From an uncultured Lachnospiraceae bacterium (GTDB lineage: Bacteria; Bacillota; Clostridia; Lachnospirales; Lachnospiraceae): 64,000 bases of DNA. The stretch spans positions 356-64,355 of the forward strand of contig CAMWJV010000005.1 of assembly GCA_947174665.1 (NCBI GenBank), written 5' to 3'. Positions 42,096 through 61,202 of this stretch are shown here, piece by piece. Below the pieces are notes generated by a model. It was not told where the DNA came from and did not search any database. It saw nothing but the letters and a program-made list of their open reading frames with translations. The position numbers and the translations under genes are program-made. Position 1 is the first letter of the stretch. Each line of letters opens with the position of its first letter.

Positions 42096-42099
42096 AATC

Positions 42100-42294: not shown

Positions 42295-42419
42295 AACTTA
42301 TCCCTCCATAAAATGTAATACGGAACGCTTTCTTAAGCACATTTATATGATAACTCAAATTTGATTTTCATGTTCTTCCTCTAAGGACTAAGTTTTATGA
42401 ATTAGTAGCCTTTTAAGGA

Positions 42420-42731: not shown

Positions 42732-42949
42732 CCTGTACTTACCTCCTTTCTTTTTTAATAAATGAATATATCTAGCAAAAAAATTTGTATAGGCAGCTAT
42801 TATGTGCAAAAATATCTCGCGTCTATTATAGAATATATGTTTGTGTTGCACTTGTTAAAAAAACAGAGCTGCGACAACAAGATTTTATCTTATCATCTCA
42901 GCTCCCTTTAGCTCTTCTTGACTGCCCTTTCAATCAAGGAAATATATTT

Positions 42950-43093
42950 TTATTTATCAGTTCTTTGCTTTTGTTTCCGCTTTTTTACAGAGTATACAAC
43001 AAATCTACCTTCTCTATCTCTTCTTACCTCTGCATCATTGCCATTCTGTGTTGCCTCTTCAATCTGTAAATACAGTTCCTTCTCTTTGTTCAT
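42950..43093 (-). CDS. Unannotated 47-aa basic protein MNKEKELYLQIEEATQNGNDAEVRRDREGRFVVYSVKKRKQKQRTDK
   Basis: Manual translation; AGGAGGTG RBS immediately after the GHKL ATPase stop. Confidence 0.65.
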   Translation of the reverse strand: MNKEKELYLQIEEATQNGNDAEVRRDREGRFVVYSVKKRKQKQRTDK

Positions 43094-43105
43094 ACCCTGC
43101 ACCTC

Positions 43106-44824: not shown

Positions 44825-44860
44825 ATTTGCATCCTCCTAACATTTATTATATTTTGAGTC

Positions 44861-45042
44861 AAAAAAAGACCTCACATCGAAATGTAAGGTCTCATAAATA
44901 TACAAATAATAATCAAAACGCAAACTAGACCATCCCTTATAAGGACAACTCCAGCTATGACAAGATATTCATATTAAGGTTACCGATTAATTTGATATTC
45001 TATTCTCACAGAACTATGCCATGAGACCTTCAAATTCGATTA
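44861..45042 (-). promoter_or_regulatory. Leader RNA with alternative antiterminator/terminator upstream of the GHKL ATPase
   Basis: 5' arm 45021-45040 complementary to 44876-44895, which overlaps terminator AGACCUUACAU-UUCG-AUGUGAGGUCU-U6. Confidence 0.7.
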
Positions 45043-45048
45043 TGTTTA

Positions 45049-45077
45049 ATCATATACCATCATACTCATTTTGTCAA
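45049..45077 (-). promoter_or_regulatory. sigmaA promoter driving the leader and GHKL ATPase
   Basis: TTGACA-17 bp-TATGAT. Confidence 0.8.
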
Positions 45078-45161
45078 GTCATTTTTTCTAGATTTACGTT
45101 CTTTTATTTTTGGCAGTCTTGCATATCGAGTGATAACACGCCCATTATAACCCGCAATCCT

Positions 45162-46109
45162 TTATTTTTTTATCCTCTTAAGGATTAGATTGAGCCATTG
45201 TACCTCATCCCTATTCATTTTATCCACTGTATGCCAGAGTTCCGCAATCTCATATGCTGTACTTTTCGCTACTATTTGCTGTACATTTTCTTCCGAAAAA
45301 CTCGTAAAAAATCTTCCGTTAGAATCATATCCGTTATTGATCCCTTTCTTTATGGAGATATACAGCGCCCCGCCTGTTTGCAGATAATCCGAAACTTTAC
45401 ATATAAATTCTTCAATTTCATCAATACCAAGATGAAGCAAGGAAGCATTTGCCCATATCCCATCATACACCCTGGAAGGGCTCCAGTCCTGAATCTTCTC
45501 ATACTGAACATGAATGCCGGTATACTCTGTTGCCAACCTGCATAGTTCTTCTGAAGCATCTATTGCCTCAACATCAAAGCCTCTATCTTTAAAGTACTTT
45601 ACATCTCTGCCACTACCAGCACCAATATCAATTATCTTCCCACCAGGAATAACGTATTTGATAAACCTGTCACAGCATTCGGACATATCTACATCTACAG
45701 TATCCCGGAAATATTGATCTGCGTTTTGGTTGTAGTAGCTTATCGTCATATTATTCTTTCCATACTTCTCATAAATCTGTTCTGCTTCGGCGGTAATCTT
45801 ATCCGGATTGTTCAAATACTCCTGTACTATTTCTTTTTGGAGCTTTGTGCCCTGCATTCCAGAATACTGAGTTTCAGAATCCAAGCAGCGAATTCTACTA
45901 GACTGCATATGAATTCCAGCATAGTTTCTGAATATATCCGAAACCGGTACCCCTGTCAGCATTTCCTCACGATTTCTTAGGAATTCACTTATTCCTTGAT
46001 GGGTCTTCTGGATCTCCTCACTTGATAAATTCTTTGTTCTGAAGTATTCAACCACCAAAATAACAACTTCTTCCCTATCCCATTTGCGTTCCGTTCTTTT
46101 ATCACTCAT
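45162..46109 (-). CDS. Fusion: McrA-N-like helical domain plus class I (TehB-like) SAM methyltransferase
   Basis: N-terminal KWDREEVVILVVEY; from MTISYYNQNA: IIDIGAGSGRD, AIDAS, YDGIWANASLLH. Confidence 0.8.
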   Translation of the reverse strand: MSDKRTERKWDREEVVILVVEYFRTKNLSSEEIQKTHQGISEFLRNREEMLTGVPVSDIFRNYAGIHMQSSRIRCLDSETQYSGMQGTKLQKEIVQEYLNNPDKITAEAEQIYEKYGKNNMTISYYNQNADQYFRDTVDVDMSECCDRFIKYVIPGGKIIDIGAGSGRDVKYFKDRGFDVEAIDASEELCRLATEYTGIHVQYEKIQDWSPSRVYDGIWANASLLHLGIDEIEEFICKVSDYLQTGGALYISIKKGINNGYDSNGRFFTSFSEENVQQIVAKSTAYEIAELWHTVDKMNRDEVQWLNLILKRIKK

Positions 46110-47113
46110 TTTGCAATTACCGCCTTTGTTTCCGGCTTCCAGGTCCTATCATAGCCATTAATCTTTGCCCAGTTATATACATAGGTAATCATCCTGGACT
46201 GATAGTTCTGCATCTCCGGTCTGTGATACCCAATCAAAATATGCTGATTTCGATCAATAATATCCGTCAAATACTTTCCATCTGGCAACCTGTCGTTTTT
46301 CTTACGGTTACAAGTCGGACAAGATAATACTAGATTCCATAAATTATCATCTTTAATAAACGACCACGGAATAAAATGATCAACATCAATCTTATCCGGC
46401 TGCAAAGGTCTTCCACAATAAAAACAATTCTTGCTTTCAAATTCATCATAGAGTATCTGTCGATATGCTGAAAGATTGTTTCTCTTTGCACTTTCGTCTA
46501 TTTTATCAAGTAGCTTTGTTGCCACCGCTTCCTCATTTACCCGTTCAAGGAATCTGGCCCACTCATAATAGTTCAGTTTCTCTATAACTACCTTATGCTT
46601 GCATATGAACTCATACATTACTGAATTGATCTGTAACCATTCCTCTTTCTTTGAAAAAGAATAAAATAATCGATTGGTATCTTCGAACAATGCACCCACT
46701 ACATATTTTTTGCATTTAATCTTTACCTGATGAGAAATATCCAGCATCATTTCTGCCGTCAGGCTTTCATATGGTATCGGCTCAATTATGCGGTACTTAT
46801 CAACAGCGGCATGGAGCACCTGTTCGAGGTATGTCTCTCTATTATCATTTGTAGCAGCCTTCTGTCTTAACCCATACTTCAGAATCAGATTCCAGTATAT
46901 CTCTCCAAACTTGCTGAAGAGCTGATTGAAGGTCAGCTTTAAATCTTTATCAACATTATATAGATTATCTATTATTGCCTTTAAGAAACCATATTTGTAG
47001 CTTGAATCATTTCTCGATTTAGAAGAAAAAACGCATGAAAAAGCAGACCACAGCTCATCGTCTGAGGCATTTCTTGCTTCATATTTTCCTTCCTTCAAAT
47101 CAAAACCAGCCAC
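46106..47113 (-). CDS. HNH endonuclease with N-terminal 'SYK' helical domain
   Basis: NDSSYKYGFLKAI; CFYCG, DVDHFIPWS, WNLVLSCPTCNRKKND. Confidence 0.9.
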   Translation of the reverse strand: MAGFDLKEGKYEARNASDDELWSAFSCVFSSKSRNDSSYKYGFLKAIIDNLYNVDKDLKLTFNQLFSKFGEIYWNLILKYGLRQKAATNDNRETYLEQVLHAAVDKYRIIEPIPYESLTAEMMLDISHQVKIKCKKYVVGALFEDTNRLFYSFSKKEEWLQINSVMYEFICKHKVVIEKLNYYEWARFLERVNEEAVATKLLDKIDESAKRNNLSAYRQILYDEFESKNCFYCGRPLQPDKIDVDHFIPWSFIKDDNLWNLVLSCPTCNRKKNDRLPDGKYLTDIIDRNQHILIGYHRPEMQNYQSRMITYVYNWAKINGYDRTWKPETKAVIAK

Positions 47114-48132
47114 TACAAACCCCTCCGTTTCTTCAAGAGTTTTATCATTTCCTCAGGATTATCCAGCAAAGAGCAAGCTTCATCATCAGTAACGTCTTCA
47201 GTTTCATTATTTTCCTGGGCTGCTGCTATCGCCATTCGTTCATTCTCTGCTTCAACTTGTTCTGCCCAGTGCATCACCTCATCCGCCTCAAACAGCATCT
47301 CATATGTATTAATGCGATTAGATTTTATGAACGCAAGGCTTTCGCAAATTCTATCCAGTAAAGAAACAAAGCTTTCTTCCGGTGCATCGGAAAACATACT
47401 ACAATAGCGTTCCTTTTCTTTCGAAAAACTAACTCCCAGAGTGTTCTCTATAGCATCCAGATTATCAAGATATGACTGCCGGATTCCCCTTCGCCGTATC
47501 AGTATATCCTCATAACTTGGGCTATCATCTTGATCACACGAAATAATGCTTCGAACCTGCCCATAATAATCCATAAAGTTTCCAACATCGGCCGTATACG
47601 CAAATTCGTCTAATATCTGCTCAAATTGATATTCTTCTCTAATAGGATTCGACAATGCGCAATCATATTTTCCATTCTTGTCAAACACACGACACCCAAA
47701 GAAAACACTATCATCAGTCACAAAAAAGAAAATATTAAACCCGTCTAATGCTTTATTTACTATTTTTTCAAAAGCTACACACGATGTCACCGCATCATGT
47801 CCTACCGCTTCAATCTTAGTGGCTATCACTCTGCAAACCATGGCTCCCCGTCGCATGAACTTGTTAAAATCCGAATACATATATACACAATCTATTTTTT
47901 CTGTATAGCGAATTTCATCAGAGGAATAAACCTCTTTATCATCTCCATAGACAAAAACAAGTCGCTCCATATTACCAGCGTACTTGGGAGACTTCTCTGA
48001 AACAAGTCCCGCAGTTTCCAAAACACAGGTTATTGACTTCTCAGAGAATGCTTCTGAAACAAGTTCTACTGGTTCTATGCTGTCATGATATTCATCAATA
48101 TATTCGTAATTATCATCGTCATAGTAACCCAT
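47113..48132 (-). CDS. Acidic hypothetical protein of the defence operon
   Basis: 339-aa ORF tightly coupled to its neighbours; no motif recognised. Confidence 0.75.
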   Translation of the reverse strand: MGYYDDDNYEYIDEYHDSIEPVELVSEAFSEKSITCVLETAGLVSEKSPKYAGNMERLVFVYGDDKEVYSSDEIRYTEKIDCVYMYSDFNKFMRRGAMVCRVIATKIEAVGHDAVTSCVAFEKIVNKALDGFNIFFFVTDDSVFFGCRVFDKNGKYDCALSNPIREEYQFEQILDEFAYTADVGNFMDYYGQVRSIISCDQDDSPSYEDILIRRRGIRQSYLDNLDAIENTLGVSFSKEKERYCSMFSDAPEESFVSLLDRICESLAFIKSNRINTYEMLFEADEVMHWAEQVEAENERMAIAAAQENNETEDVTDDEACSLLDNPEEMIKLLKKRRGL

Positions 48133-48142
48133 ATCATCATCT

Positions 48143-48697
48143 CTATTTGTTTAGTATTTTATCAATTCCTGCCTTCAGTGCCTCACCGTCCTGCTCTTCA
48201 TTAAACATATTTGTATATTGGTACATCTTCAAAAGATATGCATCCCTATCGATACACTCATCCACAAACTGCTCATGAAGAACCTCTACTCCACCAAGAA
48301 AATACTCATTAAAAATCTGCATATTCTCAGCTACCATCGCCTTATCTTCCTCTGTTTTTTCAGAGAAATTGAATGCCCGGTAAATCCTTTTTTCTGTATC
48401 CGGCTCTGACTCTTCATCTATCAGCATCAGAATCTGATAAATATATTTCAGCTCACCGCTTCTTTTAACAATCTGTTCCGCGAGGATACCTACATCACCA
48501 TCTGCGGCGCTCCCCATTTTTCCCTTTCGGCTATACTGGTATCCAATTAAAGGACATAGGATATAGGCATCAATATAAGCCTTAAAAATCTTAAAGTTGT
48601 TATGCTGATCTTTATCAGCAACATTTCCTCGCAATTCACACAAGTCTTTAAGGTAATTGGCATGAACACCTGTGATATCAAAATTTGTGTTAAACAT
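48143..48697 (-). CDS. Small partner of the SMC-ATPase (PbeD/DndE-like position)
   Basis: FKAYIDAYILCPLIG...FNEYFLGGVEVL pattern; directly after the ATPase. Confidence 0.55.
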   Translation of the reverse strand: MFNTNFDITGVHANYLKDLCELRGNVADKDQHNNFKIFKAYIDAYILCPLIGYQYSRKGKMGSAADGDVGILAEQIVKRSGELKYIYQILMLIDEESEPDTEKRIYRAFNFSEKTEEDKAMVAENMQIFNEYFLGGVEVLHEQFVDECIDRDAYLLKMYQYTNMFNEEQDGEALKAGIDKILNK

Positions 48698-48710
48698 ATT
48701 TCACACCCTC

Positions 48711-50708
48711 CTATCTGATATGTGTTGCTGTATCTATTTCTTTACCTTCGACATCCTTGTCTTTCGTTATGCTGTAGCTCTTACCAACATATTCTCCGAG
48801 ATTTACAGCAGCATACTCCCAGTCTTTCTGCATAACAGCCATTATCACCTGATTAGCAGTCTTCGGAAGTATTTTACAGATATTATCAATATGAATTTCA
48901 TCCACGTTTGAGAATGGTGCGTCCATAACAAGTGGATATACCTGACCTAACTGCATTTCCTCATCATCAAGTATTCTGTCCTTGGCCATTGATACAAGGC
49001 TCGCTATAAAAGCAAAGCTCTTAACCGCCTTTAATCCGTCTGACTCTTCTGTAGTAATATCGCTATACTTAACACGATATTTGTCATCGATTGTAATAGA
49101 TCTCTCGCCATGATACATTTTTGCAAAATTAGAATTAACTCGCCGCTGTAATTCATAACGCACCGTATCTTCTTTCGCTTTATATGTATCTGAAAGCCAC
49201 TCTTGAACCATTGATACATATGTAATATATCGCACCAGCCGACTGTTTTTTGTGCTACTCTTTGCAAACTTGGCAATAGCATCCTCACAATTTCTAATAT
49301 CTCTCTGGCACCCTCCTATGTCTATAACCGCCTGATCATAATCGGATTTTGCTTCTAAATACTTTGTGTGAGCCTCGTGGCGTTTATTTTCTATGGTTTT
49401 TGCGTCCGTATCATCAATAATCAGTTTTGACTTCTCTCCTGCTTCATCCTGTAGTTCTCCAATATGGCGCTGTATCCCTCGAATCTCCTTATACTTTTCC
49501 TCTATATCGGTAAAAAAAGATTCACTACCGGAAAGATATCCTTCTGCCTTGTTCTTATAGTTCATAACCACCGCGCCTATAGTCTCTGGTGGCAGCTTCC
49601 TTCTTTCCTGCATCACCAGTTGGTATGGCTGACTTCCAGGATCGAGATGTGTGCCACAAATACATATTTTTCTGTTTATTAAATAATCAATGGAGTCCTG
49701 GTTCATTCCGGGAACACATTCAACCTGATCATTAATTTCCTGTAAAACCTCCAAAGATTTTTTTATAGATGGCATTCCAAAGAATGCATATGGTCTTTTG
49801 TTAAACAAATCAACATATGCTCTAATGGCATTTTCCAGACGAATTTCCTCGTTAATCAATGCCTTTGATATTCTATCTCTTTCCTCTTTTGCTTTCTTTA
49901 CCTGTTCAACATTGCTTTTTGAAAGCTCAACATTATATTCGCTCTCTTGCTTCTGATAGTATTCCATTTCAGCCTGAGCGTTATCTCTGGTTTCTTTGTA
50001 TTGCTGAAGCTTCTTATTTGCTGTTCCTAAACTATCCTGTGCAGCTTGCGCTTTAGCATCTCCCGACGTATCAATATTGCTCGAAAATTTCTTTAACGCC
50101 TCCTTTATATGATCGCGAGCATTTTCCAAAACATCCAGGCGCATGAGCCCTCGAACAGCATTCGAAAGATCCGTCCTATTTGCAATTCCTGATATTCGTT
50201 CTCCTCCAAAAAAGAAATAATCCGAAAGGTCTTGCGGCAGTACCCTATCTATTGATTCCGATATATTTTCTCTCCGTATGTCAGTCTTTGTTTGACCATC
50301 TGCCTGCAAATATGTAAGGGACAAATCTTCCTCCGGCTTTTTATTCAACCCCACAAATAGTTTTCCATCAGCCCTGGTTCGCTCATTACACAGGTATGTG
50401 TACTTTCTTTTAAGCGTATACATCTTGTCGCCGTTGGAATCCTGATGCGAAAAAGTAACCGCAACCCATACCTCTTGCATATCGCCAACATTCATGTTAT
50501 CACGCACTTCACTGTTAAGAAGAACTGGATCTTCAAACCCGTTTTTAGCATAAAAGCACCACTCAAACGCCCGAATAATCGTCGTTTTACCTGAGGTGTT
50601 TACACCAATGAGCACAGTAACATTTTTATCCAAATCAGTAGAAAACTCAACTTCTTGTAAGCCAATGTACTGTCTAAAGTTATACATTTCCAGCTTATGA
50701 ATAATCAT
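48711..50708 (-). CDS. SMC/Rad50-like ABC ATPase with CxC hook (PbeC/DndD-like)
   Basis: NFRQY, GVNTSGKTT Walker A, FFFGGE, central CICG, VMDAPFS Walker B/D-loop, coiled coils. Confidence 0.88.
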   Translation of the reverse strand: MIIHKLEMYNFRQYIGLQEVEFSTDLDKNVTVLIGVNTSGKTTIIRAFEWCFYAKNGFEDPVLLNSEVRDNMNVGDMQEVWVAVTFSHQDSNGDKMYTLKRKYTYLCNERTRADGKLFVGLNKKPEEDLSLTYLQADGQTKTDIRRENISESIDRVLPQDLSDYFFFGGERISGIANRTDLSNAVRGLMRLDVLENARDHIKEALKKFSSNIDTSGDAKAQAAQDSLGTANKKLQQYKETRDNAQAEMEYYQKQESEYNVELSKSNVEQVKKAKEERDRISKALINEEIRLENAIRAYVDLFNKRPYAFFGMPSIKKSLEVLQEINDQVECVPGMNQDSIDYLINRKICICGTHLDPGSQPYQLVMQERRKLPPETIGAVVMNYKNKAEGYLSGSESFFTDIEEKYKEIRGIQRHIGELQDEAGEKSKLIIDDTDAKTIENKRHEAHTKYLEAKSDYDQAVIDIGGCQRDIRNCEDAIAKFAKSSTKNSRLVRYITYVSMVQEWLSDTYKAKEDTVRYELQRRVNSNFAKMYHGERSITIDDKYRVKYSDITTEESDGLKAVKSFAFIASLVSMAKDRILDDEEMQLGQVYPLVMDAPFSNVDEIHIDNICKILPKTANQVIMAVMQKDWEYAAVNLGEYVGKSYSITKDKDVEGKEIDTATHIR

Positions 50709-50866
50709 TTTTTATCCACCTCCTGCATGATAAGTTTATATATCTTATCAATCATAGCAGCCCTAGACTCTTTTTTTACTATGTTATCAGTCTCAGCCTC
50801 CAGAATTCTCAGTTTGATTGTATCGAGCTTCTTCTCATCTATTTCATCATTCAAATTCGTCACCAT
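50705..50866 (-). CDS. Unannotated 53-aa protein MVTNLNDEIDEKKLDTIKLRILEAETDNIVKKESRAAMIDKIYKLIMQEVDKK (PbeB-like position)
   Basis: Manual translation; GGAGGG RBS inside the helicase 3' end; its TGA overlaps the ATPase ATG (ATGA). Confidence 0.75.
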   Translation of the reverse strand: MVTNLNDEIDEKKLDTIKLRILEAETDNIVKKESRAAMIDKIYKLIMQEVDKK

Positions 50867-53009
50867 CGCATGCACCCTCCAATTCTTCCGTGGTTATTGA
50901 ATATGCCGATTCAAGATCATTTATAAGATCATCTGAGTCTCTAGAGTTCTTTGCAATCTCCCCGAACTCCTTAATTCTCAGCAGTTCCCTTCTAGCCAAC
51001 GCCCTCTCACAATTGTAGCCTGGGCTATATGGATTCACTTCATCCAATGGTCGTGTTAATGTCACGAAATCATATATAACAGCATATGGTTTATCTTTCG
51101 CTAATCTCAGCACTCTTCCGCGGCGCTGAATATATTCTTTCGGATTTGTCGTACTAGCAAGTATGAACGCTGTTTTTATACTTGGAATATTAACGCCTTC
51201 ATCCAAACACTTTATGGCTACAATCGCCTGATACGGTTCCGCCATTGCAAATCGTCTTTTTATTACATCCCTTTCCTCTGCAGATTCGTTAGCAGTAAAA
51301 TGCGTTACCTTCATTCCGAACTCATTACCGAGAATCTTGGAGACCGCAACAATCTGTCTTTCGCCCTCTTCATCTACTTCAGATACATCCGCATCAAAGG
51401 TCTGTACTCTTGTAGCACCGCAGTATACAAGCATATGCGTGTCATCTTTATACTTTTTCATAAGATCACGTAACGCATCCAGCTTAGACTTTGCCCCAGC
51501 AACTATCCTGGCCCTTTGCAAAAGAAGACTCTTTCCCTTTTCCGTAATGTTCAGCTTTCCATGCTTATTTCTGTGACATTCCTTGGATGCCAAATAGGAT
51601 ATTTCCTTATATCTTTCAAGTTCTTCATTATCGAGATGCACCAATACCGGATAATAATAATACGGGGTCAGCTTTTTCTCTTTAATAGCTCGATTTAAAT
51701 CATACTCAATACACTTCTCACCAAAATAATCCTTTAAGCACTGTGTTCCCTCTTCATCTCCGTGTCGGTCAAGAGTGGCCGATAGAGCTAATCTATAATC
51801 AATATTTTTATATAATCTTTTTCTCAAAGTGGTTGAACCAAAATTATGTGCTTCATCCACCAGAAGCAATGTATCAGCCCCCAGCTTTGACATCTGCTCC
51901 GTCACAAACTTTGAAGAATACGTCGCATTAGTCGTAACAAAACAGAATGTGTCAATTATTCCGATAGAAAAGTCTATCACATCATTTTCAAGCCGCTTCT
52001 TCCAATTCTTCTGCTTTGATGCTGAGTAGCCTATCGCCGGAAGCATATTAAATAATTCTATATCTTCAACCCATTGCTCAACCAAATGCTGATATGGACA
52101 TACTATTATAATTGCCAGCCTTTTCTTTTCCTCAAATAGCCTTACAACAGCACCCAATCCCGTATATGTCTTACCTGTTCCGGTCGCCATGTCAAAAATA
52201 CCGCGATATCCATGATCTCGCCAAGACTCTATCGCACCAACTTGATATTCTCTCAATATGAAGCCATCTGGTAACTTGGGAAATCCTTTTTTCACCTCGG
52301 GTTTTGTTTCTTCTTCCTCTTCATCTATTTCTAGATTGAGTTTTTCCTTCCTTCTAACCCGGAACTTTTCCCTTACCACTTCTGGAAACTCTATTACTTC
52401 AAGGTCCTTATCCTGATCATTCCATAACAGTTCGAAATCGTGCTGCATTTCGTCAGCATAGTCTTTTGATTCTTCCCATGAATTAAAAACAACAATCGAC
52501 TCATAGTTGTTATGGAATGCATTTAAAGTTTCATTTAACGATCCGGTAAAAACCACTTTGTTTCCATATTCGTCAGTAACTATACCTACTTTCTCATGGT
52601 ACATGCCCATCTCTTTGTTTGGTGGTGTAAATGCCACCTTGATTTCCAGAAACCCTTCTTCTATAAGGTATGCCAGCCAGTTTAAACGTTCCTCCTGAAA
52701 ATAATTCTCCGGTTCGCGGAACTCCCGCATAAGAGCTTCACCAATTATTTCCTTTTTTTCATATCCTTTATTGATTGCATCAATATCCTCTTGGGACAAA
52801 AGCGGAGAAACAATAAACTGTATACGTCCCTTGTTTTTTATCATCCCCGATATTCCTTTTGTCAGATCAATCAACGCTGTTGACGAAAAGTATCCAACCG
52901 CACGCTGGTAAAGCACCGCTTCTTTCAGAACCGGTGTGTAGAATTCTTTAATAATGTCGTTCTTATATGTCTTATAATGCTTCAGAAGCGTTAAATCCTT
53001 AAATGACAT
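50847..53009 (-). CDS. PLD-like nuclease plus SF2 helicase (PbeA-like, phosphorothioation-associated restriction enzyme type)
   Basis: RAVGYFSS, YHEKVG...FTGSLNET (PLD); MATGTGKT, VDEAH, LALSAT, CLDEGVNIP, QRRGRVLR. Confidence 0.88.
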   Translation of the reverse strand: MSFKDLTLLKHYKTYKNDIIKEFYTPVLKEAVLYQRAVGYFSSTALIDLTKGISGMIKNKGRIQFIVSPLLSQEDIDAINKGYEKKEIIGEALMREFREPENYFQEERLNWLAYLIEEGFLEIKVAFTPPNKEMGMYHEKVGIVTDEYGNKVVFTGSLNETLNAFHNNYESIVVFNSWEESKDYADEMQHDFELLWNDQDKDLEVIEFPEVVREKFRVRRKEKLNLEIDEEEEETKPEVKKGFPKLPDGFILREYQVGAIESWRDHGYRGIFDMATGTGKTYTGLGAVVRLFEEKKRLAIIIVCPYQHLVEQWVEDIELFNMLPAIGYSASKQKNWKKRLENDVIDFSIGIIDTFCFVTTNATYSSKFVTEQMSKLGADTLLLVDEAHNFGSTTLRKRLYKNIDYRLALSATLDRHGDEEGTQCLKDYFGEKCIEYDLNRAIKEKKLTPYYYYPVLVHLDNEELERYKEISYLASKECHRNKHGKLNITEKGKSLLLQRARIVAGAKSKLDALRDLMKKYKDDTHMLVYCGATRVQTFDADVSEVDEEGERQIVAVSKILGNEFGMKVTHFTANESAEERDVIKRRFAMAEPYQAIVAIKCLDEGVNIPSIKTAFILASTTNPKEYIQRRGRVLRLAKDKPYAVIYDFVTLTRPLDEVNPYSPGYNCERALARRELLRIKEFGEIAKNSRDSDDLINDLESAYSITTEELEGACDGDEFE

Positions 53010-53029
53010 TCCGCCTCCTCCTTCCGCTC

Positions 53030-53224
53030 TTATTCCAGCACTTCAAAATCCATATCGCCCATAATATCCTTTGCTTTTTCGTCTGATGTTTCCACACACA
53101 CTCCACAATAAGCCTTATCCTGAACCGGAGTAGGTACCACCTTGCATTCTATATTTTCATTATTAAGTATTTCTTCTGCTTTAAAGACATCGCTTGTGCT
53201 ATAAAAAACAATATGCATATACAA
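53030..53224 (-). CDS. DUF3343-family small protein (putative S/Se carrier)
   Basis: IVFYST...KAE..L...I....VPTP......CG pattern; abuts the desulfurase stop. Confidence 0.75.
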   Translation of the reverse strand: MYMHIVFYSTSDVFKAEEILNNENIECKVVPTPVQDKAYCGVCVETSDEKAKDIMGDMDFEVLE

Positions 53225-54346
53225 TCACCTGCTTCTTAACGTATCCAAGAGCTGATCTATCTCAGCCTTTTTATTTTTATAATTCAAACTGATTCTTACC
53301 GCCCCAGATTCAACAGTCCCTATTGCTTCGTGTGCCAAAATAGCGCAATGAATACCACCCCGAGCGCATATTCCTTTGCTATCTAAAAGCGAAATGGTTT
53401 TGTCCGAAGACAAATCATCTATCGTAAAGCAACAGGTAGCCACCCGCTCATTCTCTATGTCGTACACCTTTACCCCATCTATGTCTGTCAGCCCTTGAAG
53501 CAGATAGGTCATCAGCGCCTTCTCTTCTCTTCTTATAGTATCAGAATGCGCCGTTATAAATTCTATCCCCGTCTTAAGCGCCCAAATAGCAGGCATATTC
53601 AATGTCCCTGCTTCATATCCTTCCGGGAAAATGTCCGGATTCACATAATTTTCCCCATGTATACCAGTCCCCCCTTGGATCAATGGTATGAAATGCGCTT
53701 TTGACTCACAGCACAATCCGCCCACGCCCGGAATACCATACAAATCCTTATGACCTGTGAATGCCAAAAAATCGATTTGAGACTCTGTCATGTTCAAAGC
53801 CAATTTTCCGGCACCCTGCGAAGAATCAACAAAAGTAATAATGCCCTTTGTATGAAAGAATTTCATCCAATCTTCTTTATATATAATTCTTCCTGTCAGG
53901 TTACTTGCCAACGTCAACGCTAACATCCGCGTATTTTCATTTGCATATTTTTCAAGAAGAGTATCCGCCTCCAACCCCAAATCCTCTCTGCTTATGACAG
54001 AGTAGTCAATGATTCCTTTTTGTTTGAGGTCTTGTAATGGTCTTAGAACGGCGTTATGTTCGTAGCATGAAATAATTACATGATCACCTTTTTTCAGAAG
54101 TCCTTTAAACAGTAAGTTTATTGCTTCCGTTGAATTCTTTGTAAAAACCACTCTTTCAGGATGAGACATGCCAAAATACTTTCCCACCGCTGTCCGTGAT
54201 TTATAGAGCATACGGGAAGCCTCTATCCCAAGAGAATAGCTTCCTCTCCCTGGACTCACGCCAACATCACGAAGGTAATAGTTCACTGCCTCAATGACTT
54301 CATCCGGCTTATATTTAGTTGTAGCGGCATTATCAAAATATATCAT
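53225..54346 (-). CDS. Cysteine desulfurase, group II (SufS/Csd-like) (SspA role)
   Basis: IYFDNAATT, EHNAV, DSSQ, FTGHK, EAGT, RGGIHCA; start 54346 overlaps the upstream TGA. Confidence 0.92.
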   Translation of the reverse strand: MIYFDNAATTKYKPDEVIEAVNYYLRDVGVSPGRGSYSLGIEASRMLYKSRTAVGKYFGMSHPERVVFTKNSTEAINLLFKGLLKKGDHVIISCYEHNAVLRPLQDLKQKGIIDYSVISREDLGLEADTLLEKYANENTRMLALTLASNLTGRIIYKEDWMKFFHTKGIITFVDSSQGAGKLALNMTESQIDFLAFTGHKDLYGIPGVGGLCCESKAHFIPLIQGGTGIHGENYVNPDIFPEGYEAGTLNMPAIWALKTGIEFITAHSDTIRREEKALMTYLLQGLTDIDGVKVYDIENERVATCCFTIDDLSSDKTISLLDSKGICARGGIHCAILAHEAIGTVESGAVRISLNYKNKKAEIDQLLDTLRSR

Positions 54347-55944
54347 TGAGTACCTTTCCTTGACGACAAAACATCGCACATAATGCAGCCATTGTAGAAC
54401 TTAGCAATACAGTGTTTACAATGCTGACATTTCTTATCGTCAATCGTATATTTCCCATGAATAGTATCAATCGCACCATATGGACAAGTTGAATCGCATG
54501 CTGAACATCTAATACAAAACTGATATTTACGCATTTGGCACTTAATTCTATTCACAAGGTTCGTCGCATCGATTCGTTCTTCCGGCAATAACTTTATTAC
54601 CGTTGTTCCATATGTAAGGATTAGTTCACATATCTTTCTGTACTCTCCAGATTTATCTTTGTCAGAAATCTGAACATATGTAGCATCCTTTTTTTCAATA
54701 ACCTTCAAATCTCCTAAAGGTTTGAACAGTTCCAACACATCTTTCTGAAGTTTCTTTTCAATAATTACATTTCTCGCACGATCTGACAGATTACAAGGTG
54801 TATCCGCAATAGTAACATTTTTATCCTTCAGACCACTGGCACCTCTACGTATTCTCCATTTGCCCTCTTCATAATAATTATCAGGATCAGTCTTACCAGT
54901 GCGCTCCGCGAACTCGTATACCATATCCTTCCATCTTTGCATGTCTTCCGGATGATATATCTCGGTAAGCATCATCGACCAATCAGAATTGTTAGGGCAA
55001 CACCAACATCCAACTCTCTTATAGCCATACTGGTAGCAATCGTTTATCAAAAGGTCTTTTGCCAATATGTAAAGCCAAACATCATAATCTGTCCATTCAA
55101 TAATCGGCATCGCATTTACTTGCGAAGATATCTTCGAAGTTTCCTGCGTCCTGTTATATCCAGCTCTGGCAACAGATTCGCTATGTCTTATACCAAGAAA
55201 TGTCAAGCTATTCCCCGGAAGATTATCATACTCTTTATTCAGGTTACTCGTTTTAAATATCGTACAGCACCAACGCTCATGCTGGCTTGGTGGTCCGAAC
55301 ACTTTACATAGCTTAAAAAAGTCATTGTCCGTCTCGCTGGGAATCATAGGTACCCTTGGATTCTCTCTCCTGAACTTCTCGGTAACATATGTGTATGTTT
55401 CCTTGAATTCTAATGTTGTATCCCCAAACATATGGATGACAGTATTATCCTGCAAGGCATCCATTACAAGCCTGCTCACCACGGTCGAATCTTTTCCTCC
55501 GGAAAAAGAAACTGTGGGTATATAATTATCTCCCTTGTATTTGTTCAAGGAATTTACAATATATTGTTCTGCCTCATATACCAGCTGATTGAGATATACC
55601 TCGTTGGCCTTAACAACGGAAATATATGGAGAATAATCCCTATCAACCTCTATGTTGTTTCTTAACTCTTCTGCTACCACTAAATGTTTTTTAGCTTTGT
55701 ACCATTCTCTATATGGTATCTTAACTATTTTCTCGTCGATATAGTATTTACTTGCTCCCAAATACCAAATACTCTGATCACCATAATCACAGCCCATGAT
55801 CTTCTCCAGCAATTTCCTTTCTTGCTTGAATACCGGATTGCATATGGAGCCTACAGATATCTTTACTGATTCTCCATCACAGGAGCAACTATGCAAGCCT
55901 TTATCGAACACCGGGGTCTTGCATTTTTTGCACCAATAAATCAT
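54343..55944 (-). CDS. PAPS-reductase-family PP-loop protein with C-terminal ferredoxin (SspD/DndC-like)
   Basis: SFSGGKDS, DTTLEF, RWCC, GIRHSES, RVGCWCCP; N-terminal CKKC..CSC; C-terminal CIRCSACDSTCP and CQHCKHC. Confidence 0.9.
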   Translation of the reverse strand: MIYWCKKCKTPVFDKGLHSCSCDGESVKISVGSICNPVFKQERKLLEKIMGCDYGDQSIWYLGASKYYIDEKIVKIPYREWYKAKKHLVVAEELRNNIEVDRDYSPYISVVKANEVYLNQLVYEAEQYIVNSLNKYKGDNYIPTVSFSGGKDSTVVSRLVMDALQDNTVIHMFGDTTLEFKETYTYVTEKFRRENPRVPMIPSETDNDFFKLCKVFGPPSQHERWCCTIFKTSNLNKEYDNLPGNSLTFLGIRHSESVARAGYNRTQETSKISSQVNAMPIIEWTDYDVWLYILAKDLLINDCYQYGYKRVGCWCCPNNSDWSMMLTEIYHPEDMQRWKDMVYEFAERTGKTDPDNYYEEGKWRIRRGASGLKDKNVTIADTPCNLSDRARNVIIEKKLQKDVLELFKPLGDLKVIEKKDATYVQISDKDKSGEYRKICELILTYGTTVIKLLPEERIDATNLVNRIKCQMRKYQFCIRCSACDSTCPYGAIDTIHGKYTIDDKKCQHCKHCIAKFYNGCIMCDVLSSRKGTQ

Positions 55945-55956
55945 AGACTGTCACCT

Positions 55957-58900
55957 CTAACCAATAATCTCCTTCATAATCTCGGTCAAAATCGAAATCT
56001 TCTCTTCATAGCTGATAGATTCTCCAAAATCACCCAATGTGTTTTTCATCTTCTTCAGCATAGTCTTTCCCGTAGCAGACAATTTCTCATGAGAAAACTG
56101 AGTAATCAAAGGAACTCCATCCGCAGATTCAATGGTAATTTTCATCTCGCCCTGCTGCAGACCATCTTCCGGATTATACTCATTCAATTTATTAACAACA
56201 TCTCTAAGGATTTCCTCAAAATCATTAATCTTGTTATCCGCCCAATATGTAAGTTCAAAACCCGTCGTTGCTTTTGCAAGTTCCAAAACAAAATGCTCTT
56301 CATCCATCTCGGATGATCTCGAAACAAGATCAAGAACATTGTTTGTTGTGTAATCAAATGCTTTCTGGCTTTTCTCTTCCCACTCATCACGATACATATT
56401 CTGCATATGCTGAATCAAATCATCCGAGTCATCTACGTCAAACACCTGCTTAATCACACGCACAACTCTTATATATAATTTTTCGCCTACAGATTCCAGT
56501 TCTTCCTTTATGTTTCCAATCTGAATCACAAGTTCCTGCAAATCACTATTTAGCCGTGGCAACATCTCAAAGAAGAACGCATTGTAGTCCTTATACGAAA
56601 TATTAAGTATATTTCTGTACTCCTTTGCCAATTCAGAAATATACACTTCTGTGGTTCTTGCACTCTTAGAAATCGAAGCATAATGTGTGTTAATAGCTCG
56701 GAACAATTCTTCTAATCTATTAAGTCCATCTCCCTTTGGGAGATAATCAGCGAACAGTTTTTCCAGCCCCTCAATATATGTGCTCTCTTCTTCATTCCAG
56801 TTACAAATAAATAATGTATAGTTCTCTGGCTCAGATAATGCTTTAACCAGTTCTTCCTCTGTATACGAATGTTCATTGCCATGGAAATACAGAGAAACAT
56901 TCTGATAATCACGTAATGCATACGCAAGTAAAACAGGAATTACCCCGTCCCTCAATCCGTATGGTTCCGTTTTTAGCATTTCATATAACTCACTCAATGC
57001 AAGACGTTCACTTCCTGCTCTACGCAGTTTTCGCTGAATGGCATTCATCACCGGATTCCCTGACACTGTGTGCCTCTCATCTGGCAAATAATTCAAGGAT
57101 TCCTCTGCTATGCGATTTTCCTCTTTTACCGTATTGTTGTCTGCGATTCCGGTCTTGGATAATGTGGCTCTCAGAATATTGTACTCTGGCGACAGCGTAG
57201 AACATCCATCATATATATCCTCTTGCCACATGATACATTCTATTGCTTTCTTCCGCGCAAGTCTGATAGCACCTGTCAGGTTATTCTTGTTTAGCAAATC
57301 ATTGTTTACCCTAGGCGTTCTGTTAAATGTAGCATCCATAATATCTGAAAGCACATCAGAAAGCTCCTTCTCAGATGCGACCTCAATGAGGCTGCCGCTA
57401 TTTATTACAAACGTTCCCGGATCCCGAAGCATTCTCCACTTACGGATTAACTCATTGACAATAGCTTCCTGTTCGCTTGAGTATAACGATAATTCATTGA
57501 CGACAGTTGGGTCATCCTCAGCAAGTTCCTCTTTCTTGGAATAAAAATACTGAAGTGCAATATAACGCTTTACTTCTTCCTCAACTGCTTTTGATTTTCC
57601 GTTAACGACAAGAAGTGTACGCTTAGGCAAACCTAACATCTGAGCATATTCTTTTTCATCTGCCTGATCATCCAGAACAAAAATTACAGTGCCATCATAA
57701 TACTTCGGTAATGTATTATGAAAAGACTTCTTGGTTAACTCACCCTTGGTTGCAAAGGCTGGAATAAAAACTCGATTAATGTAATAAGTTTCATTGTATC
57801 TGTATGGATATAACGCAAAATCAGCGAATTTCTCGTTCAAAATCCGAACTACCATTTCATCATTAATGCTAGGGAGTTTATCCTCTATCATCTTCTCCAA
57901 ATCAAATATGCTACTATCAAAATAATCATAGTACCCATATTGACGCATGTATTTAATGATCTTTTTCTTTTCAAGACTCTCAATTGCATTTGACACTTCT
58001 TGTTGATCGCCATCAATCACACAACACAAAGTATCTCTATCGGCAATCAGCACATCTGTATCAGCTATTATGCTGATTACTGCCATTGTCTTCAGTATCT
58101 TTATTTGATATCCCTTTTTATCAGTTCCAAGCTTATTCAATGCATACTGAAGTTTTTTGTATACGGCATAGGCTTCATCCGTCTTGAAAGACTTTATATT
58201 CAGTTCGAAATAATCATATATGGCATCAAGCCCAATAAAATGGAACTCTTTAATATTATAGTTTTGCAGCTGTGAAAACAAAGTATTGTCTTCGTCGCCA
58301 GCCAGATACGTAAAAAATGTACGCTCGTTCTGTGCCACCTTTTTTGATAATCTATCAAGTGCAAAAAGCGTTATGGGATGGAGCGGGAACCCATCCTCAA
58401 ACGCCGAACCCCCATTCGTTTCCGGCGGAAGCATGAATCCCTTAAAATCCCATGCCTGGCTATATAAATTATTTAAAGTCTTTTCGAACTTATTCTTAAA
58501 TGTTTTCCAGTGAGACTGGTTCTTCGGAATAATATTACCAATAAGTGACAGGCATTGGTCATATTTTATATTAATAGAAGTTGCCTTAAATCTACCCTCA
58601 ACCTTTTTCCACTCATCACTGATGCTCTTTTTCATTTTACTGGTATAAAGCGACAGCTGCTTGTGTGAAACCAGAATCAAATGATTATCATAATCCGAGT
58701 GATCACAATATTCGGCCAAATCCTGAACGGATTTAACTTTAAGAACTTCTCCATAATCTTCTACATATCGACCAAATTCATCAAAGACAAGCACAATGCC
58801 CCTATACGTATCCTTGATCGCCTCATTGGCATAATTCATATTATCTATAAGGTTCCCCGCCGTGCTATTAAATGCTGCGCCATAGGACATACCTGAATAT

Positions 58901-59520
58901 ACCCTGTTAAATATCTTTTCATACGAAGCATTGTAATATGATAAGCCCTTTATCAGTTCCTCTACCGTTGTCTTCTGTTTTTTACATACTTCTGTCATTC
59001 TCACTGACGATTCCTTGCCTGCATTCCACTTTTTTACCAGTGCAAGCGCTTCATCAAAAAAACCTTTAAAAGACACCTGAATATTATTTCTTTCCAATTC
59101 CTTCTTCAGCGAAAAAGAAATGCACTTTCCAAAATCATCATAGTCCGAATAAACTGGTACAACCATGTACGGTTTCTTCTCTTTGGCAAATTTGCAAATA
59201 TCTGCAACAAGTTCCTTATCATAGTTTGCAATTAGTTTAGTAAAACTCTTAAATCCCTCTCCCTTGATGTTTATATGCCCCAAAACCGCACTTATCACCG
59301 TCAACAAATGTGATTTGCCGGTACCATAAGAGCCGTAGAGTATTCTGGAATGAATATCAGAATTACCACGGATTATCCCACCTAGGTATTCTCTGATTAT
59401 TTCCGTCGTTGTAATGTTCGGGATAAAACCCGCAATCCTTTCTTCATCTCGAAGATCAAAACAGATATTCACAGAATACTTATATTGCTTTTTCTTTGAA
59501 ACCAGTTTTGTATAATCCAT
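55957..59520 (-). CDS. Large P-loop ATPase (SspC/BrxC-like)
   Basis: GSYGTGKSH Walker A, LVFDEFGRY Walker B, FPLHP, QNERTFFTYL, L...PYGL. Confidence 0.85.
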   Translation of the reverse strand: MDYTKLVSKKKQYKYSVNICFDLRDEERIAGFIPNITTTEIIREYLGGIIRGNSDIHSRILYGSYGTGKSHLLTVISAVLGHINIKGEGFKSFTKLIANYDKELVADICKFAKEKKPYMVVPVYSDYDDFGKCISFSLKKELERNNIQVSFKGFFDEALALVKKWNAGKESSVRMTEVCKKQKTTVEELIKGLSYYNASYEKIFNRVYSGMSYGAAFNSTAGNLIDNMNYANEAIKDTYRGIVLVFDEFGRYVEDYGEVLKVKSVQDLAEYCDHSDYDNHLILVSHKQLSLYTSKMKKSISDEWKKVEGRFKATSINIKYDQCLSLIGNIIPKNQSHWKTFKNKFEKTLNNLYSQAWDFKGFMLPPETNGGSAFEDGFPLHPITLFALDRLSKKVAQNERTFFTYLAGDEDNTLFSQLQNYNIKEFHFIGLDAIYDYFELNIKSFKTDEAYAVYKKLQYALNKLGTDKKGYQIKILKTMAVISIIADTDVLIADRDTLCCVIDGDQQEVSNAIESLEKKKIIKYMRQYGYYDYFDSSIFDLEKMIEDKLPSINDEMVVRILNEKFADFALYPYRYNETYYINRVFIPAFATKGELTKKSFHNTLPKYYDGTVIFVLDDQADEKEYAQMLGLPKRTLLVVNGKSKAVEEEVKRYIALQYFYSKKEELAEDDPTVVNELSLYSSEQEAIVNELIRKWRMLRDPGTFVINSGSLIEVASEKELSDVLSDIMDATFNRTPRVNNDLLNKNNLTGAIRLARKKAIECIMWQEDIYDGCSTLSPEYNILRATLSKTGIADNNTVKEENRIAEESLNYLPDERHTVSGNPVMNAIQRKLRRAGSERLALSELYEMLKTEPYGLRDGVIPVLLAYALRDYQNVSLYFHGNEHSYTEEELVKALSEPENYTLFICNWNEEESTYIEGLEKLFADYLPKGDGLNRLEELFRAINTHYASISKSARTTEVYISELAKEYRNILNISYKDYNAFFFEMLPRLNSDLQELVIQIGNIKEELESVGEKLYIRVVRVIKQVFDVDDSDDLIQHMQNMYRDEWEEKSQKAFDYTTNNVLDLVSRSSEMDEEHFVLELAKATTGFELTYWADNKINDFEEILRDVVNKLNEYNPEDGLQQGEMKITIESADGVPLITQFSHEKLSATGKTMLKKMKNTLGDFGESISYEEKISILTEIMKEIIG

Positions 59521-59532
59521 CTGTAATTTCCT

Positions 59533-60408
59533 CTATTCACTATAGTATTCATCCAGCAAACTATCATACTGGACATTTGAAAACTCAATAAACCTGTTTC
59601 CAAAGTTATTATTAAGTGTAAGAAGCTTTTTGTTCTCAGCTTCAAGAAGCATATCGATAAGCTTCGAATACCTCATGGGAAAATACTTACCTACTTGCCC
59701 CTTTTCTTCCATAAGCTTGTCTATGCTAATTTGCCCTCTATTACCACTTTCTTCAGGATTATCCATCGCAATCGCATAGACCAGAATAAGCAAAGGCATT
59801 TCCGCTTTGGTCAGGAATTTTTTTTCAATCTTCTTATCTTCATCAACACAAAGCAGGTGTAGCGGTGCCAACATTGGATAGGTGTCTTCATCCATTGCTG
59901 TTCGAATGTCAAACTTCTTCTCACCTATGTATGTATTCTTAAAGCAATTAAACTCCTTATCAACTGCCGCTTTCTTTATGGTCATTTCATTAACTGCAAG
60001 GAAATAATGCAAACCCTCAACAAACTCTTCCTTGGTAAAGGACTGCTTATCCATCTCGTTAAACGCCCAATACCATGCCGTAGCGTTTTCTTCGTTCAAT
60101 GCTATATTTCTATGCAGAAGCAACAAGCTTCCCAGTCTCTGAAAATACCTGTCATTTTTTGCCAGTAAATCAAATAACGGTGTCCTCTTCTCTGCGATAC
60201 CGCCCTGCACCTTTTCTTCTACCGTAAGGCCAGTTGCATCTGCCCAATACCTAAGCGCTCTTATCATGACACGTCCTAAGCCGATTTTATCAACCGCCTC
60301 CTGCTCATTAGCAGGCGAAAAAATCATATTGTCAGTTTCTACAGCTTGAATGATTTTTGTGCCCCAACCACTCCTAAGGTAAAAACTACCATGTTTATTA
60401 ACAACCAT
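59533..60408 (-). CDS. DUF4007-family protein (SspB-like)
   Basis: HGSFYLRSGW..K, GLGRVMIRALRYW, DRYF..LGSLLLLH, ATAWYWAFN. Confidence 0.88.
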   Translation of the reverse strand: MVVNKHGSFYLRSGWGTKIIQAVETDNMIFSPANEQEAVDKIGLGRVMIRALRYWADATGLTVEEKVQGGIAEKRTPLFDLLAKNDRYFQRLGSLLLLHRNIALNEENATAWYWAFNEMDKQSFTKEEFVEGLHYFLAVNEMTIKKAAVDKEFNCFKNTYIGEKKFDIRTAMDEDTYPMLAPLHLLCVDEDKKIEKKFLTKAEMPLLILVYAIAMDNPEESGNRGQISIDKLMEEKGQVGKYFPMRYSKLIDMLLEAENKKLLTLNNNFGNRFIEFSNVQYDSLLDEYYSE

Positions 60409-60500
60409 AGGTTACAGCCCTTTCTGTGCAGCCTCCTATGTAGGAAGCTGTTAATAATAGTATACAACTTATGATGTCCCCAAAAACGGACTCATACTGC

Positions 60501-60698
60501 TTATTCATAACTTATTATTTCGCTCACATTACAATCAAAGTACTTGGCAAGCTTTTCCAACACCTTATTTGATATCGGTTCTCCCTTCCCCATCTTTGCA
60601 ACAGTAGCAGAGCTTAAACCCACCTCTTTGACCAGATCCTGCTTCTGAAGGTTTTTATCAATCATCTTTTTCCATAATCCGTTATAAGATACTGTCAT
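60501..60698 (-). CDS. XRE/Cro-like HTH regulator at the head of the defence operon
   Basis: MTVSYNGLWKKMIDK...LSSATVAKMGKGE..S...LEKLA..FDCNVSEII. Confidence 0.9.
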   Translation of the reverse strand: MTVSYNGLWKKMIDKNLQKQDLVKEVGLSSATVAKMGKGEPISNKVLEKLAKYFDCNVSEIISYE

Positions 60699-61202
60699 AG
60701 TCTCAGTGCCTTTCCTACTATCACTTAATCTACATCAGAAACCACAAAAAAAGTATAGCATAAGGCACGCCGAAAAGCCACAAAATTTATAAGAATAAAG
60801 ATTTTCTTTTATATCAACTGTGCGGGCTTGCAGGGCCAAAATTTTACAGTCCGCATAAACACTGGACTTTACCCCCTTTTCCCATTCATCTTCCACCGCT
60901 CATAGCTCAGTATGTTCCGGTTTTCTGTCAGAGTCTGTTTCCATGTCCATGCTAGTGGTACGGATGACTCTATTTGTGCTTGTGAAAAATTATACACCCT
61001 CCATTCCCGGGAACATCGGTACAATAGTTCTGCATCAAACATTTACCTCACTTCTGCTTCATAACTCATGCCACCAATGTCTTGTCCACGATCCCTTCCA
61101 TATCCTTGGGTGGAATCCGTTTCGCTAAAATACTTCACCCATATGTCTCTGGATAACTTAATAGGCTTGCAAGTACCCCAGAACAATCCCCATAGACGGC
61201 AA

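Follow-up and report, generated by a model that had tools for sequence, protein, structure and literature searches.

Conserved linkage of an Ssp-type phosphorothioate writer with a PbeABCD-type effector in a widespread bacterial operon family

PbeABCD was described in haloarchaea together with DndCDEA, which writes phosphorothioate (PT) into DNA; PT was needed for the defence, virus replication was blocked without visible cleavage and PT-marked virus escaped (PMC6459918). In the same work 320 of 553 PbeAC pairs (58%) were solitary, without Dnd genes (PMC6459918). Rakesh, Aravind and Krishnan (2024) treated PbeABCD as a system of a CxC ATP-binding cassette (ABC) ATPase with DndE that mixes and matches with Dnd modules and methylases, and argued that its HKD domain does cut DNA (PMC10853773). 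Among the Ssp systems, Wang et al. (2021) found 84% of 2,678 sspBCD clusters to be without SspE or SspFGH and predicted that there are more partners (PMC8092258). BrxP and BrxC, relatives of SspD and SspC, make PT in gut Bacteroidales, and gut isolates with sspBCD carry the CpsC dinucleotide (PMC12914056); a long form of SspD with a ferredoxin domain has also been reported (PMC12839542). Here we describe a locus in which an Ssp-type writer and a PbeABCD-type effector are encoded in one operon. It lies in a stretch of 64,000 nucleotides (nt), hereafter the window, from one contig (CAMWJV010000005.1) of a metagenome-assembled genome (MAG) of an uncultured Lachnospiraceae bacterium, the genome being 3.54 Mb in 215 contigs and 82.7% complete. 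Judged by its genes and their motifs, the locus is a real and intact member of a widespread family coupling an Ssp-type PT writer to a PbeABCD effector, and it is probably a composite PT defence operon of the restriction-modification (RM) type.

The initial annotation had read the locus as a mix-and-match PT system; it is not a singular case and belongs to a large, old and horizontally spread operon family. Relatives of its PbeA number thousands, the best 120 being 78-100% identical, and many metagenome contigs carry the same cassette with a PbeA 78-95% identical; one and the same PbeA sequence was indexed in 245 collection blocks. Three context look-ups gave the same cassette each time and different surroundings each time. 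The order was a helix-turn-helix (HTH) gene (seen in the P0114 look-up set only), DUF4007, an ATPase of 1176-1186 amino acids (aa), a PAPS reductase, a desulfurase, Se_S_carrier, PbeA, a small open reading frame (ORF), an ATPase, a 184-aa protein, a 324-339-aa protein, variable genes and HATPase_c_3. The cassette is abundant on metagenome contigs; many of the MAGs that carry it come from gut, rumen or faecal samples, and several cultured anaerobes carry it too, among them Anaerobium acetethylicum GluBS11 (L015), Acetatifactor aquisgranensis DSM 110981 (L021), Ruminiclostridium sufflavum DSM 19573 (L030), Eubacterium sp. MSJ-21 (L012) and Anaerotignum propionicum DFI.7.94 (L039). A scan of one genome per GTDB species, seeded with the PbeA of the window, yielded 65 loci. 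Their taxa are Lachnospiraceae, Oscillospiraceae, Christensenellaceae, Ruminiclostridium, Anaerotignum, Peptococcaceae, Sporosarcina, Saccharibacillus, Treponema, Victivallaceae, Bacteroidales, Caulobacteraceae and a member of the Coriobacteriia. Wherever the flank was long enough, PbeA almost always had homologues of SspB, SspC and SspA as same-strand neighbours, and in most loci SspD as well. This linkage persists to PbeA identities as low as 43%, at which the Ssp proteins share just 23-37% identity with those of the window.

Since the 65-locus set is biased to the query's own clade, an even draw of 401 species genomes of the phylum was made and all 20 other full-length PbeA loci in it were fetched. 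Nine of the 20 were Ssp-linked, and with this genome counted Ssp was the commonest single assignable context of PbeA (10/21). DUF4007 (SspB) was carried by 26 of the 401 genomes, and PbeA was adjacent in ten of these 26, this genome included. One PbeA locus of the phylum sample (L093) faces a Dnd-like set, in which the PAPS reductase was confirmed by Pfam. Of the 80 loci scored, 60 had Ssp genes detected next to PbeA; three gene orders occur among the Ssp-linked loci, namely SspB-C-D-A-PbeA, SspD-B-C-A-PbeA and PbeABCD-SspD-B-C. In a FastTree tree of the 80 PbeA sequences all 60 Ssp-linked loci fall into one clade (support 99) that spans several phyla; it also holds eight loci too short to judge and one with an upstream transposase, and all other contexts lie outside. 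A one-off accident within an island as the cause of the adjacency was rejected on the strength of the similarity survey, the gene orders and the PbeA clade. The pairing is not a chance adjacency, and the linkage of writer and effector is deep and conserved.

The pairwise identities of the Pbe and Ssp proteins co-vary, with Spearman's rho of 0.81-0.87 over the 42 loci that have all six proteins, which shows co-inheritance and is not a statistical proof, as the pairs are not independent. For comparison, Xiong et al. reported rho = 0.107 for DndCD versus PbeAC (PMC6459918).

The locus with the upstream transposase (L078; G133:C2:300400-320300) is the sole PbeA of the Ssp clade that was shown to be without an adjacent writer; a DDE transposase gene lies directly upstream of PbeA, and a DUF4007 (SspB) gene is found 36 kb upstream on the same strand of the same contig, so the cassette has possibly been split by insertions. 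Outside the Ssp clade, at least three PbeA loci (L086:7432-10902, L087:8041-10917 and L089:8839-12246) have a 960-1160-aa protein directly upstream with an RNA polymerase alpha C-terminal domain (alpha-CTD) or helix-hairpin-helix (HhH) and/or sigma-70 region 4 domains. The 720-aa protein at L093:8673-10835 is of the same alpha-CTD/sigma-70 kind, and L090 has an unscanned ORF of similar size upstream of PbeA. The large alpha-CTD/sigma-70 protein is an uncharacterised recurrent partner of CxC/Pbe modules.

In the window the locus lies in a low-GC island at about 42000-61000, where the GC content is about 38% against about 50% in the flanks; the island adjoins lysS and greA, and neither an integrase nor a recombinase was seen in it. 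The genes described here are all encoded on the minus strand (Table 1), ten of them at 48143-60698. Neighbouring genes in the operon overlap or are 0-20 nt apart, the sole exception being 92 nt 3' of the XRE gene, and a scan of the operon revealed no strong terminator-like site inside it. On both counts the locus looks like a single operon. The initial annotation had already described these ten genes as one tightly spaced operon, which agrees with what was found, although the limit that it set at 48143 was too narrow: the operon continues for about 3 kb, with three more translationally coupled genes ending at 45162. The coupling consists of a 10-nt gap before the gene at 47113-48132, a 1-nt overlap with that at 46106-47113 and a 4-nt overlap with that at 45162-46109. 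Two further assignments of that annotation were borne out by family models, an Ssp-type writer set made up of DUF4007, ATPase, PAPS reductase and desulfurase (PADLOC matches for all four) and a PbeABCD-type layout of PLD-helicase, small ORF, ATPase and 184-aa partner (full-length PADLOC matches for PbeA and PbeC). It had also listed SspE, PglZ, BrxL and DndFGH as missing from the locus, and likewise none of the scanned locus genes matched these PADLOC models. Its naming of the ATPase as an SMC protein does not hold, as PbeC is an ABC ATPase with a CxC zinc hook from a sister clade of DndD (PMC10853773).

Table 1. Genes of the operon and of its downstream neighbour, in the direction of transcription (coordinates of the window)
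Feature	Coordinates	Strand	Basis of assignment
XRE/Cro-type HTH regulator, first operon gene	60501..60698	-	Pfam HTH_26, E 6e-16
SspB (DUF4007), 291 aa	59533..60408	-	Pfam DUF4007, E 7e-55; PADLOC SspB 6e-44
SspC, BrxC-like AAA+ ATPase, 1187 aa	55957..59520	-	PADLOC SspC 6e-112, BrxC 6e-35
SspD, PAPS-reductase-fold PP-loop enzyme of BrxP type with C-terminal ferredoxin domain, 533 aa	54343..55944	-	PAPS_reduct 2e-34 and Fer4_7
SspA, cysteine desulfurase of group II type	53225..54379	-	Aminotran_5 1e-75; PADLOC SspA 9e-47, DndA 3e-45
DUF3343 / Se_S_carrier small protein	53030..53224	-	Pfam PF11823 2e-13
PbeA, fusion of single-HKD (phospholipase D, PLD) nuclease and superfamily 2 (SF2) helicase	50847..53009	-	PADLOC PbeA 2e-245, full length; PLDc_2, ResIII, Helicase_C
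Small ORF in PbeB position, 56 aa from GTG or 53 aa from ATG	50705..50875	-	Position only
PbeC, ABC ATPase with CxC zinc hook	48711..50708	-	PADLOC PbeC 4e-110, full length
PbeD, 184 aa, DndE fold by model	48143..48697	-	AlphaFold2 model; weak TIGR04062 (dnd_assoc_4) 2e-4
Acidic conserved protein of no known family, 339 aa	47113..48132	-	10 nt 3' of PbeD
HNH endonuclease, 335 aa, variable accessory gene	46106..47113	-	HNH_4 1e-14 at residues 230-277
Class I S-adenosylmethionine (SAM) methyltransferase, 315 aa, last coupled gene	45162..46109	-	Methyltransf_23/25; PADLOC mad2 4e-15
GHKL (HATPase_c_3) ATPase, 572 aa	43106..44824	-	HATPase_c_3 2e-18; PADLOC MzaB 4e-20

SspB, SspC, SspD and SspA are encoded together at the locus, with intact PP-loop and Walker motifs. 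The PT chemistry of this writer is predicted from homology of its components. SspB matched the solved SspB structures 6juf/6lb9 over its full length (E 4e-11) and is the likely DNA-recognising or nicking subunit. SspC has Walker A at residues 63-70 and Walker B at 243-248. In PADLOC the SspD protein scored far better as BrxP (2e-79) than as SspD (3e-13) or DndC (3e-8), aligning to positions 23-514 of the 779 in the BrxP profile. It has the PP-loop SGGKDS at 148-153, CC at 226, CWCC at 313-316 and C-terminal CxxC pairs at 477-523, and its N-terminus, with CxxC and CxC motifs, is zinc-ribbon-like. SspA has the motif RGGIHCA with C345, which is of group II, and a TGHK motif whose K211 is presumably the lysine that binds pyridoxal phosphate. 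Taken at its longest, the SspA ORF shares 37 nt with the end of SspD; starting near 54346, which may be the true start, it would be free of overlap. The small DUF3343 protein is a putative persulfide acceptor, and its gene was detected by tblastn in loci with PbeA at least 55% identical and in no more distant locus. A homologue of the XRE protein holds the same position in many relatives.

In the effector arm, PbeA has one HxK dyad (H138/K140), GTGKT at 277 and DEAH at 385, and scored 488 bits against TIGR04095, under the 600-bit cut-off of that model. The stop of the small ORF in the PbeB position overlaps the start of PbeC by 4 nt; no family model matched this ORF in the PADLOC and Pfam scans. 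It is 41-87% identical in those loci where it was detected by similarity, and in all 40 of the more distant loci the gap between PbeA and PbeC is filled by a same-strand ORF of 44-86 aa. PbeC also matched DndD models (PADLOC DndD 4e-30; TIGR03185 3e-24); its Walker A lies at 35-42 and its CxC at 349-351, and K41, C349, C351 and D596 are invariant across 27 relatives. PbeD had no Pfam match and did not match the single PbeD model of PADLOC, and Pfam scans of 36 of its relatives gave no match at all, including none to DndE or dnd_assoc_4. An AlphaFold2 model built on these 36 relatives reached a predicted local distance difference test score (pLDDT) of 86.8. When the model was compared with 48,161 PDB chains by VIA-align, the top two were DndE structures, 7x4e_A with Z 6.9 (110/114 residues) and 5wtu_A with Z 5.2, scores below 8 alone not being decisive, and the third-ranked row had Z 4.3. 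Foldseek against the PDB found no significant match for the models of PbeD and of the 339-aa protein. PbeD has been re-annotated as a DndE cognate (PMC10853773), with which the fold suggested by the model is in agreement.

The genome was also searched for other partners, and all negative results from these searches are to be read as not found in an 82.7%-complete MAG, not as absent. PglZ (PF08665) gave no match in the genome and did match in control genomes. There was no match to GmrSD_N (DUF262) and none to the PADLOC SspE model, the SspFGH models not being searched genome-wide. The DndH model had no match in the genome, and likewise none in the control genomes. The sole genome-wide match among DndD-like genes was PbeC itself. 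No gene of DndC/SspD type was found outside the operon, the sole other PAPS_reduct match being a 328-aa ORF on contig 63, the identity of which was not examined. For BrxL and DndFGH, PADLOC models were compared with the scanned locus genes and did not match. Pairing with a DndCDEA writer, as in the original Pbe system, was not seen here, and the adjacent writer is of the Ssp type.

The following mechanism is proposed from homology and from analogy with PbeABCD/CxC work. SspA, as a group II desulfurase, would take sulfur from cysteine, and the DUF3343 protein would probably carry the persulfide to be used. Insertion of the sulfur into the backbone of DNA would be the work of SspD, an ATP pyrophosphatase of the PP-loop class and BrxP type that has Fe-S sites, and SspB, which binds and nicks DNA, would select the short target sites jointly with the AAA+ ATPase SspC. 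A PbeC dimer with its CxC zinc hook and PbeD with its predicted DndE fold would scan the DNA or form loops in it and check whether it carries PT. PbeA would translocate on DNA, and either its HKD nuclease would attack incoming DNA without the host mark or replication would be blocked. The small protein in the PbeB position may be a regulator or adaptor, and the XRE protein would control transcription of the operon. The conserved linkage suggests that Pbe recognises Ssp-type marks as self. We lean slightly towards the wider reading that the Ssp-linked PbeABCD clade is a distinct, co-inherited RM family, in which a CxC-ABC/DndE scanner and an HKD-helicase use single-strand Ssp-type PT as the self signal.

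Several points weigh against reading the locus as a composite PT defence operon. Most loci come from a search seeded with the PbeA of the window, by which its own clade was over-sampled, and common descent inflates the co-variation statistic. Variants of the cassette have also swapped modules: in L017 and L019 the writers are 84-93% identical to that of the window and the effectors just 68-77%, and inversely the writers of L012 and L007 are 71-86% and their effectors 85-90% identical, which argues against tight matching of specificity. Eleven of the 20 other genomes with PbeA in the phylum sample have CxC/Pbe modules that stand by themselves or have different partners, and as such modules exist without a PT writer (also PMC10853773), Pbe has no intrinsic need for PT. 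A further partner could lie in unassembled DNA of the 83%-complete MAG. From some of these points it could be argued that two independent systems travel together, Ssp being an orphan epigenetic PT writer or one served by the HNH nuclease, and CxC/Pbe a PT-independent defence, for instance an abortive-infection nuclease released via the small PbeB. The occurrence of CxC/Pbe modules alone or in other company in those 11 genomes and in many taxa (PMC10853773), the 320 solitary PbeAC pairs among 553 (PMC6459918), the majority of sspBCD clusters without a known partner (PMC8092258), the clustering of defence genes in islands and the exchange of modules are all consistent with it. We nevertheless regard such independence as unlikely, as all 60 Ssp-linked PbeA fall into one clade with every other context outside, same-strand adjacency has been kept through three gene orders with gaps of 0-20 nt in one operon, and the two sets of proteins co-vary with rho of 0.81-0.87. 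Two modules that merely shared an island would not be expected to stay contiguous over several phyla.

The matches of PbeC to DndD models (4e-30; TIGR03185 3e-24) and the modelled DndE fold of PbeD would also fit a role of both as DndD/DndE paralogues on the modification side, a second site-selection module feeding SspD and SspA for a second motif or for second-strand marks, with PbeA as the sole restriction component. No other DndD-like match exists in the genome, no gene of DndC/SspD type was found outside the operon, and Rakesh et al. propose that the pair of ABC ATPase and DndE triggers modification or signals its status (PMC10853773). This is nonetheless less probable still, given that the same CxC-DndE pairs occur in loci without any PAPS reductase and that in characterised systems PT needs no more than SspBCD (PMC8092258, PMC12914056). 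Very improbable, finally, is a sulfur modification other than backbone PT, to which the extra zinc-ribbon-like N-terminus and C-terminal ferredoxin domain of SspD might point, with its N-terminal CxxC and CxC, C-terminal CxxC pairs and Fer4 matches and the weak match to the PADLOC SspD model (3e-13). The same domain arrangement has been reported for BrxP and a subset of SspD (PMC12839542), and BrxP and BrxC together have been shown to produce PT dinucleotides (PMC12914056). The reading of the locus as an Ssp writer joined to a Pbe effector that would sense its mark is preferred over all three.

The three coupled genes beyond PbeD are proposed to be clade-specific accessories. The 339-aa protein is found directly 3' of PbeD in loci with PbeA at least 63% identical and evolves fast (21-76% identity); no Pfam match was found in any of 23 members of its family. 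The pLDDT of its model was 77.9, and in VIA-align the match was confined to a long C-terminal helix. Searches of the ESM Atlas by features gave no match, and those by shape gave template modelling (TM) scores of 0.42-0.57 to hypothetical proteins and one DUF4391 cluster, which is uninformative. It was also considered as a homologue of the neighbouring HNH protein, and a comparison of the two showed no homology. The HNH gene is present in most near relatives (35-96% identity); as a possible carrier of a sulfur-binding, ScoMcrA-like reader domain its protein was searched by sequence against the PDB, which matched the HNH core only and not the N-terminal 200 aa. The methyltransferase is poorly conserved, with a full-length match in just 4 of 65 loci.

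Upstream of the GHKL gene, a 337-nt gap to the methyltransferase gene holds the best promoter-like site of the region (45077-45049, near-consensus), and the GHKL leader has a terminator-like hairpin with a T-run at 44893-44866. A 580-aa HATPase_c_3 gene is also found 3' of the cassette in L004, L005 and L007-L010, and in L004, L005 and L007 it is followed by a weak GIY-YIG protein of 148-149 aa. The GHKL gene is probably a separate (two-gene) defence module travelling with the cassette. At the far edge of the low-GC island of the window lie a second XRE-type HTH gene (42420-42851) and a 105-aa HNH protein (41874-42191).

Other proteins were seen downstream of the cassette in its relatives. At least 12 more distant Ssp-Pbe loci have one homologous protein of about 358-434 aa directly 3' of PbeD, in the position of the 339-aa protein, and the three members scanned with Pfam (L039:14873-15964, L045:13938-15074 and L055:14880-15974) belong to the sigma-70 family, having regions 2 and 4 and, in one, region 1.1. 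Six loci, from both clades, encode a conserved protein of 424-462 aa 3' of the Ssp-Pbe cassette; two of these proteins (L045:15982-17256 and L017:17900-19288) were scanned with Pfam and are of the DndB family (DGQHR/ParB-like). DndB is otherwise a regulator of Dnd operons.

The Ssp-Pbe family links two gaps, the sspBCD clusters without a partner (84%, PMC8092258) and the PbeAC pairs without Dnd genes (58%, PMC6459918). If it is indeed an RM family, a large share of orphan sspBCD clusters, about 40% of SspB carriers in the phylum sample, would gain the restriction partner that they seemed to lack, and Pbe would be reading the sulfur mark itself, whichever writer made it. Reading of Ssp marks, which are on one strand at asymmetric sites, as well as of Dnd marks, which are on both strands, would constrain the poorly understood sensing of PT by Pbe. 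The presence of the cassette in several cultured anaerobes makes these proposals testable, and the cassette may matter for the genetic tractability of the bacteria that carry it.

The initial annotation knew of no characterised example of the pairing, and likewise no description of an Ssp and Pbe operon was found in the literature searched; Ssp-type neighbours may be mentioned by Krishnan et al. (2020), who first described CxC systems. The combination appears to be undescribed; all its parts are of known kinds. The catch-all class DMS_other of PADLOC may report such loci without defining them.

Of the described systems, DndCDEA-PbeABCD of Haloterrigena jeotgali A29 (Xiong et al. 2019, PMC6459918) has the same effector layout in the same order (HKD nuclease-SF2 helicase, small protein, CxC-hook ABC ATPase and DndE-like protein) if the 184-aa protein is taken, by its modelled fold, as the last of these, and in both the effector stands beside a PT writer in one transcriptional direction. 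It differs in the writer, which here is SspB/SspC/SspD/SspA (DUF4007, an ORC/Cdc6-type AAA+ ATPase and a BrxP-type PAPS reductase) instead of DndC/DndD/DndE/DndA. Moreover, the 184-aa protein goes unmatched by the PADLOC PbeD model, the operon has further coupled genes (the DUF3343 carrier, the 339-aa protein, the HNH nuclease and the methyltransferase) and PbeA belongs to the separate Ssp-linked clade. SspABCD-SspE and SspABCD-SspFGH of Vibrio, E. coli and Streptomyces (Xiong et al. 2020; PMC8092258) have the same writer gene set as the locus, with an SspB homologous to the solved one (E 4e-11) and a desulfurase in the cluster. Here, in contrast, the effector is PbeABCD, and no SspE/DUF262 was detected in the genome (SspFGH models not searched); SspD is of the long BrxP-like form with a ferredoxin domain, and a DUF3343 carrier is inserted 3' of SspA. 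The likeness to type 4 BREX (brxPCZL; PMC12914056, PMC12839542) lies in SspD scoring best against BrxP, in the match of SspC to BrxC, in the presence of DUF4007 and a desulfurase and in relatives that make PT. PglZ has been reported in all type 4 BREX loci (PMC12839542), whereas the genome examined here gave no PglZ match and the scanned locus genes matched no BrxL model, and DUF4007 is here a separate gene of 291 aa, not fused to the PAPS reductase as it is in BrxP.

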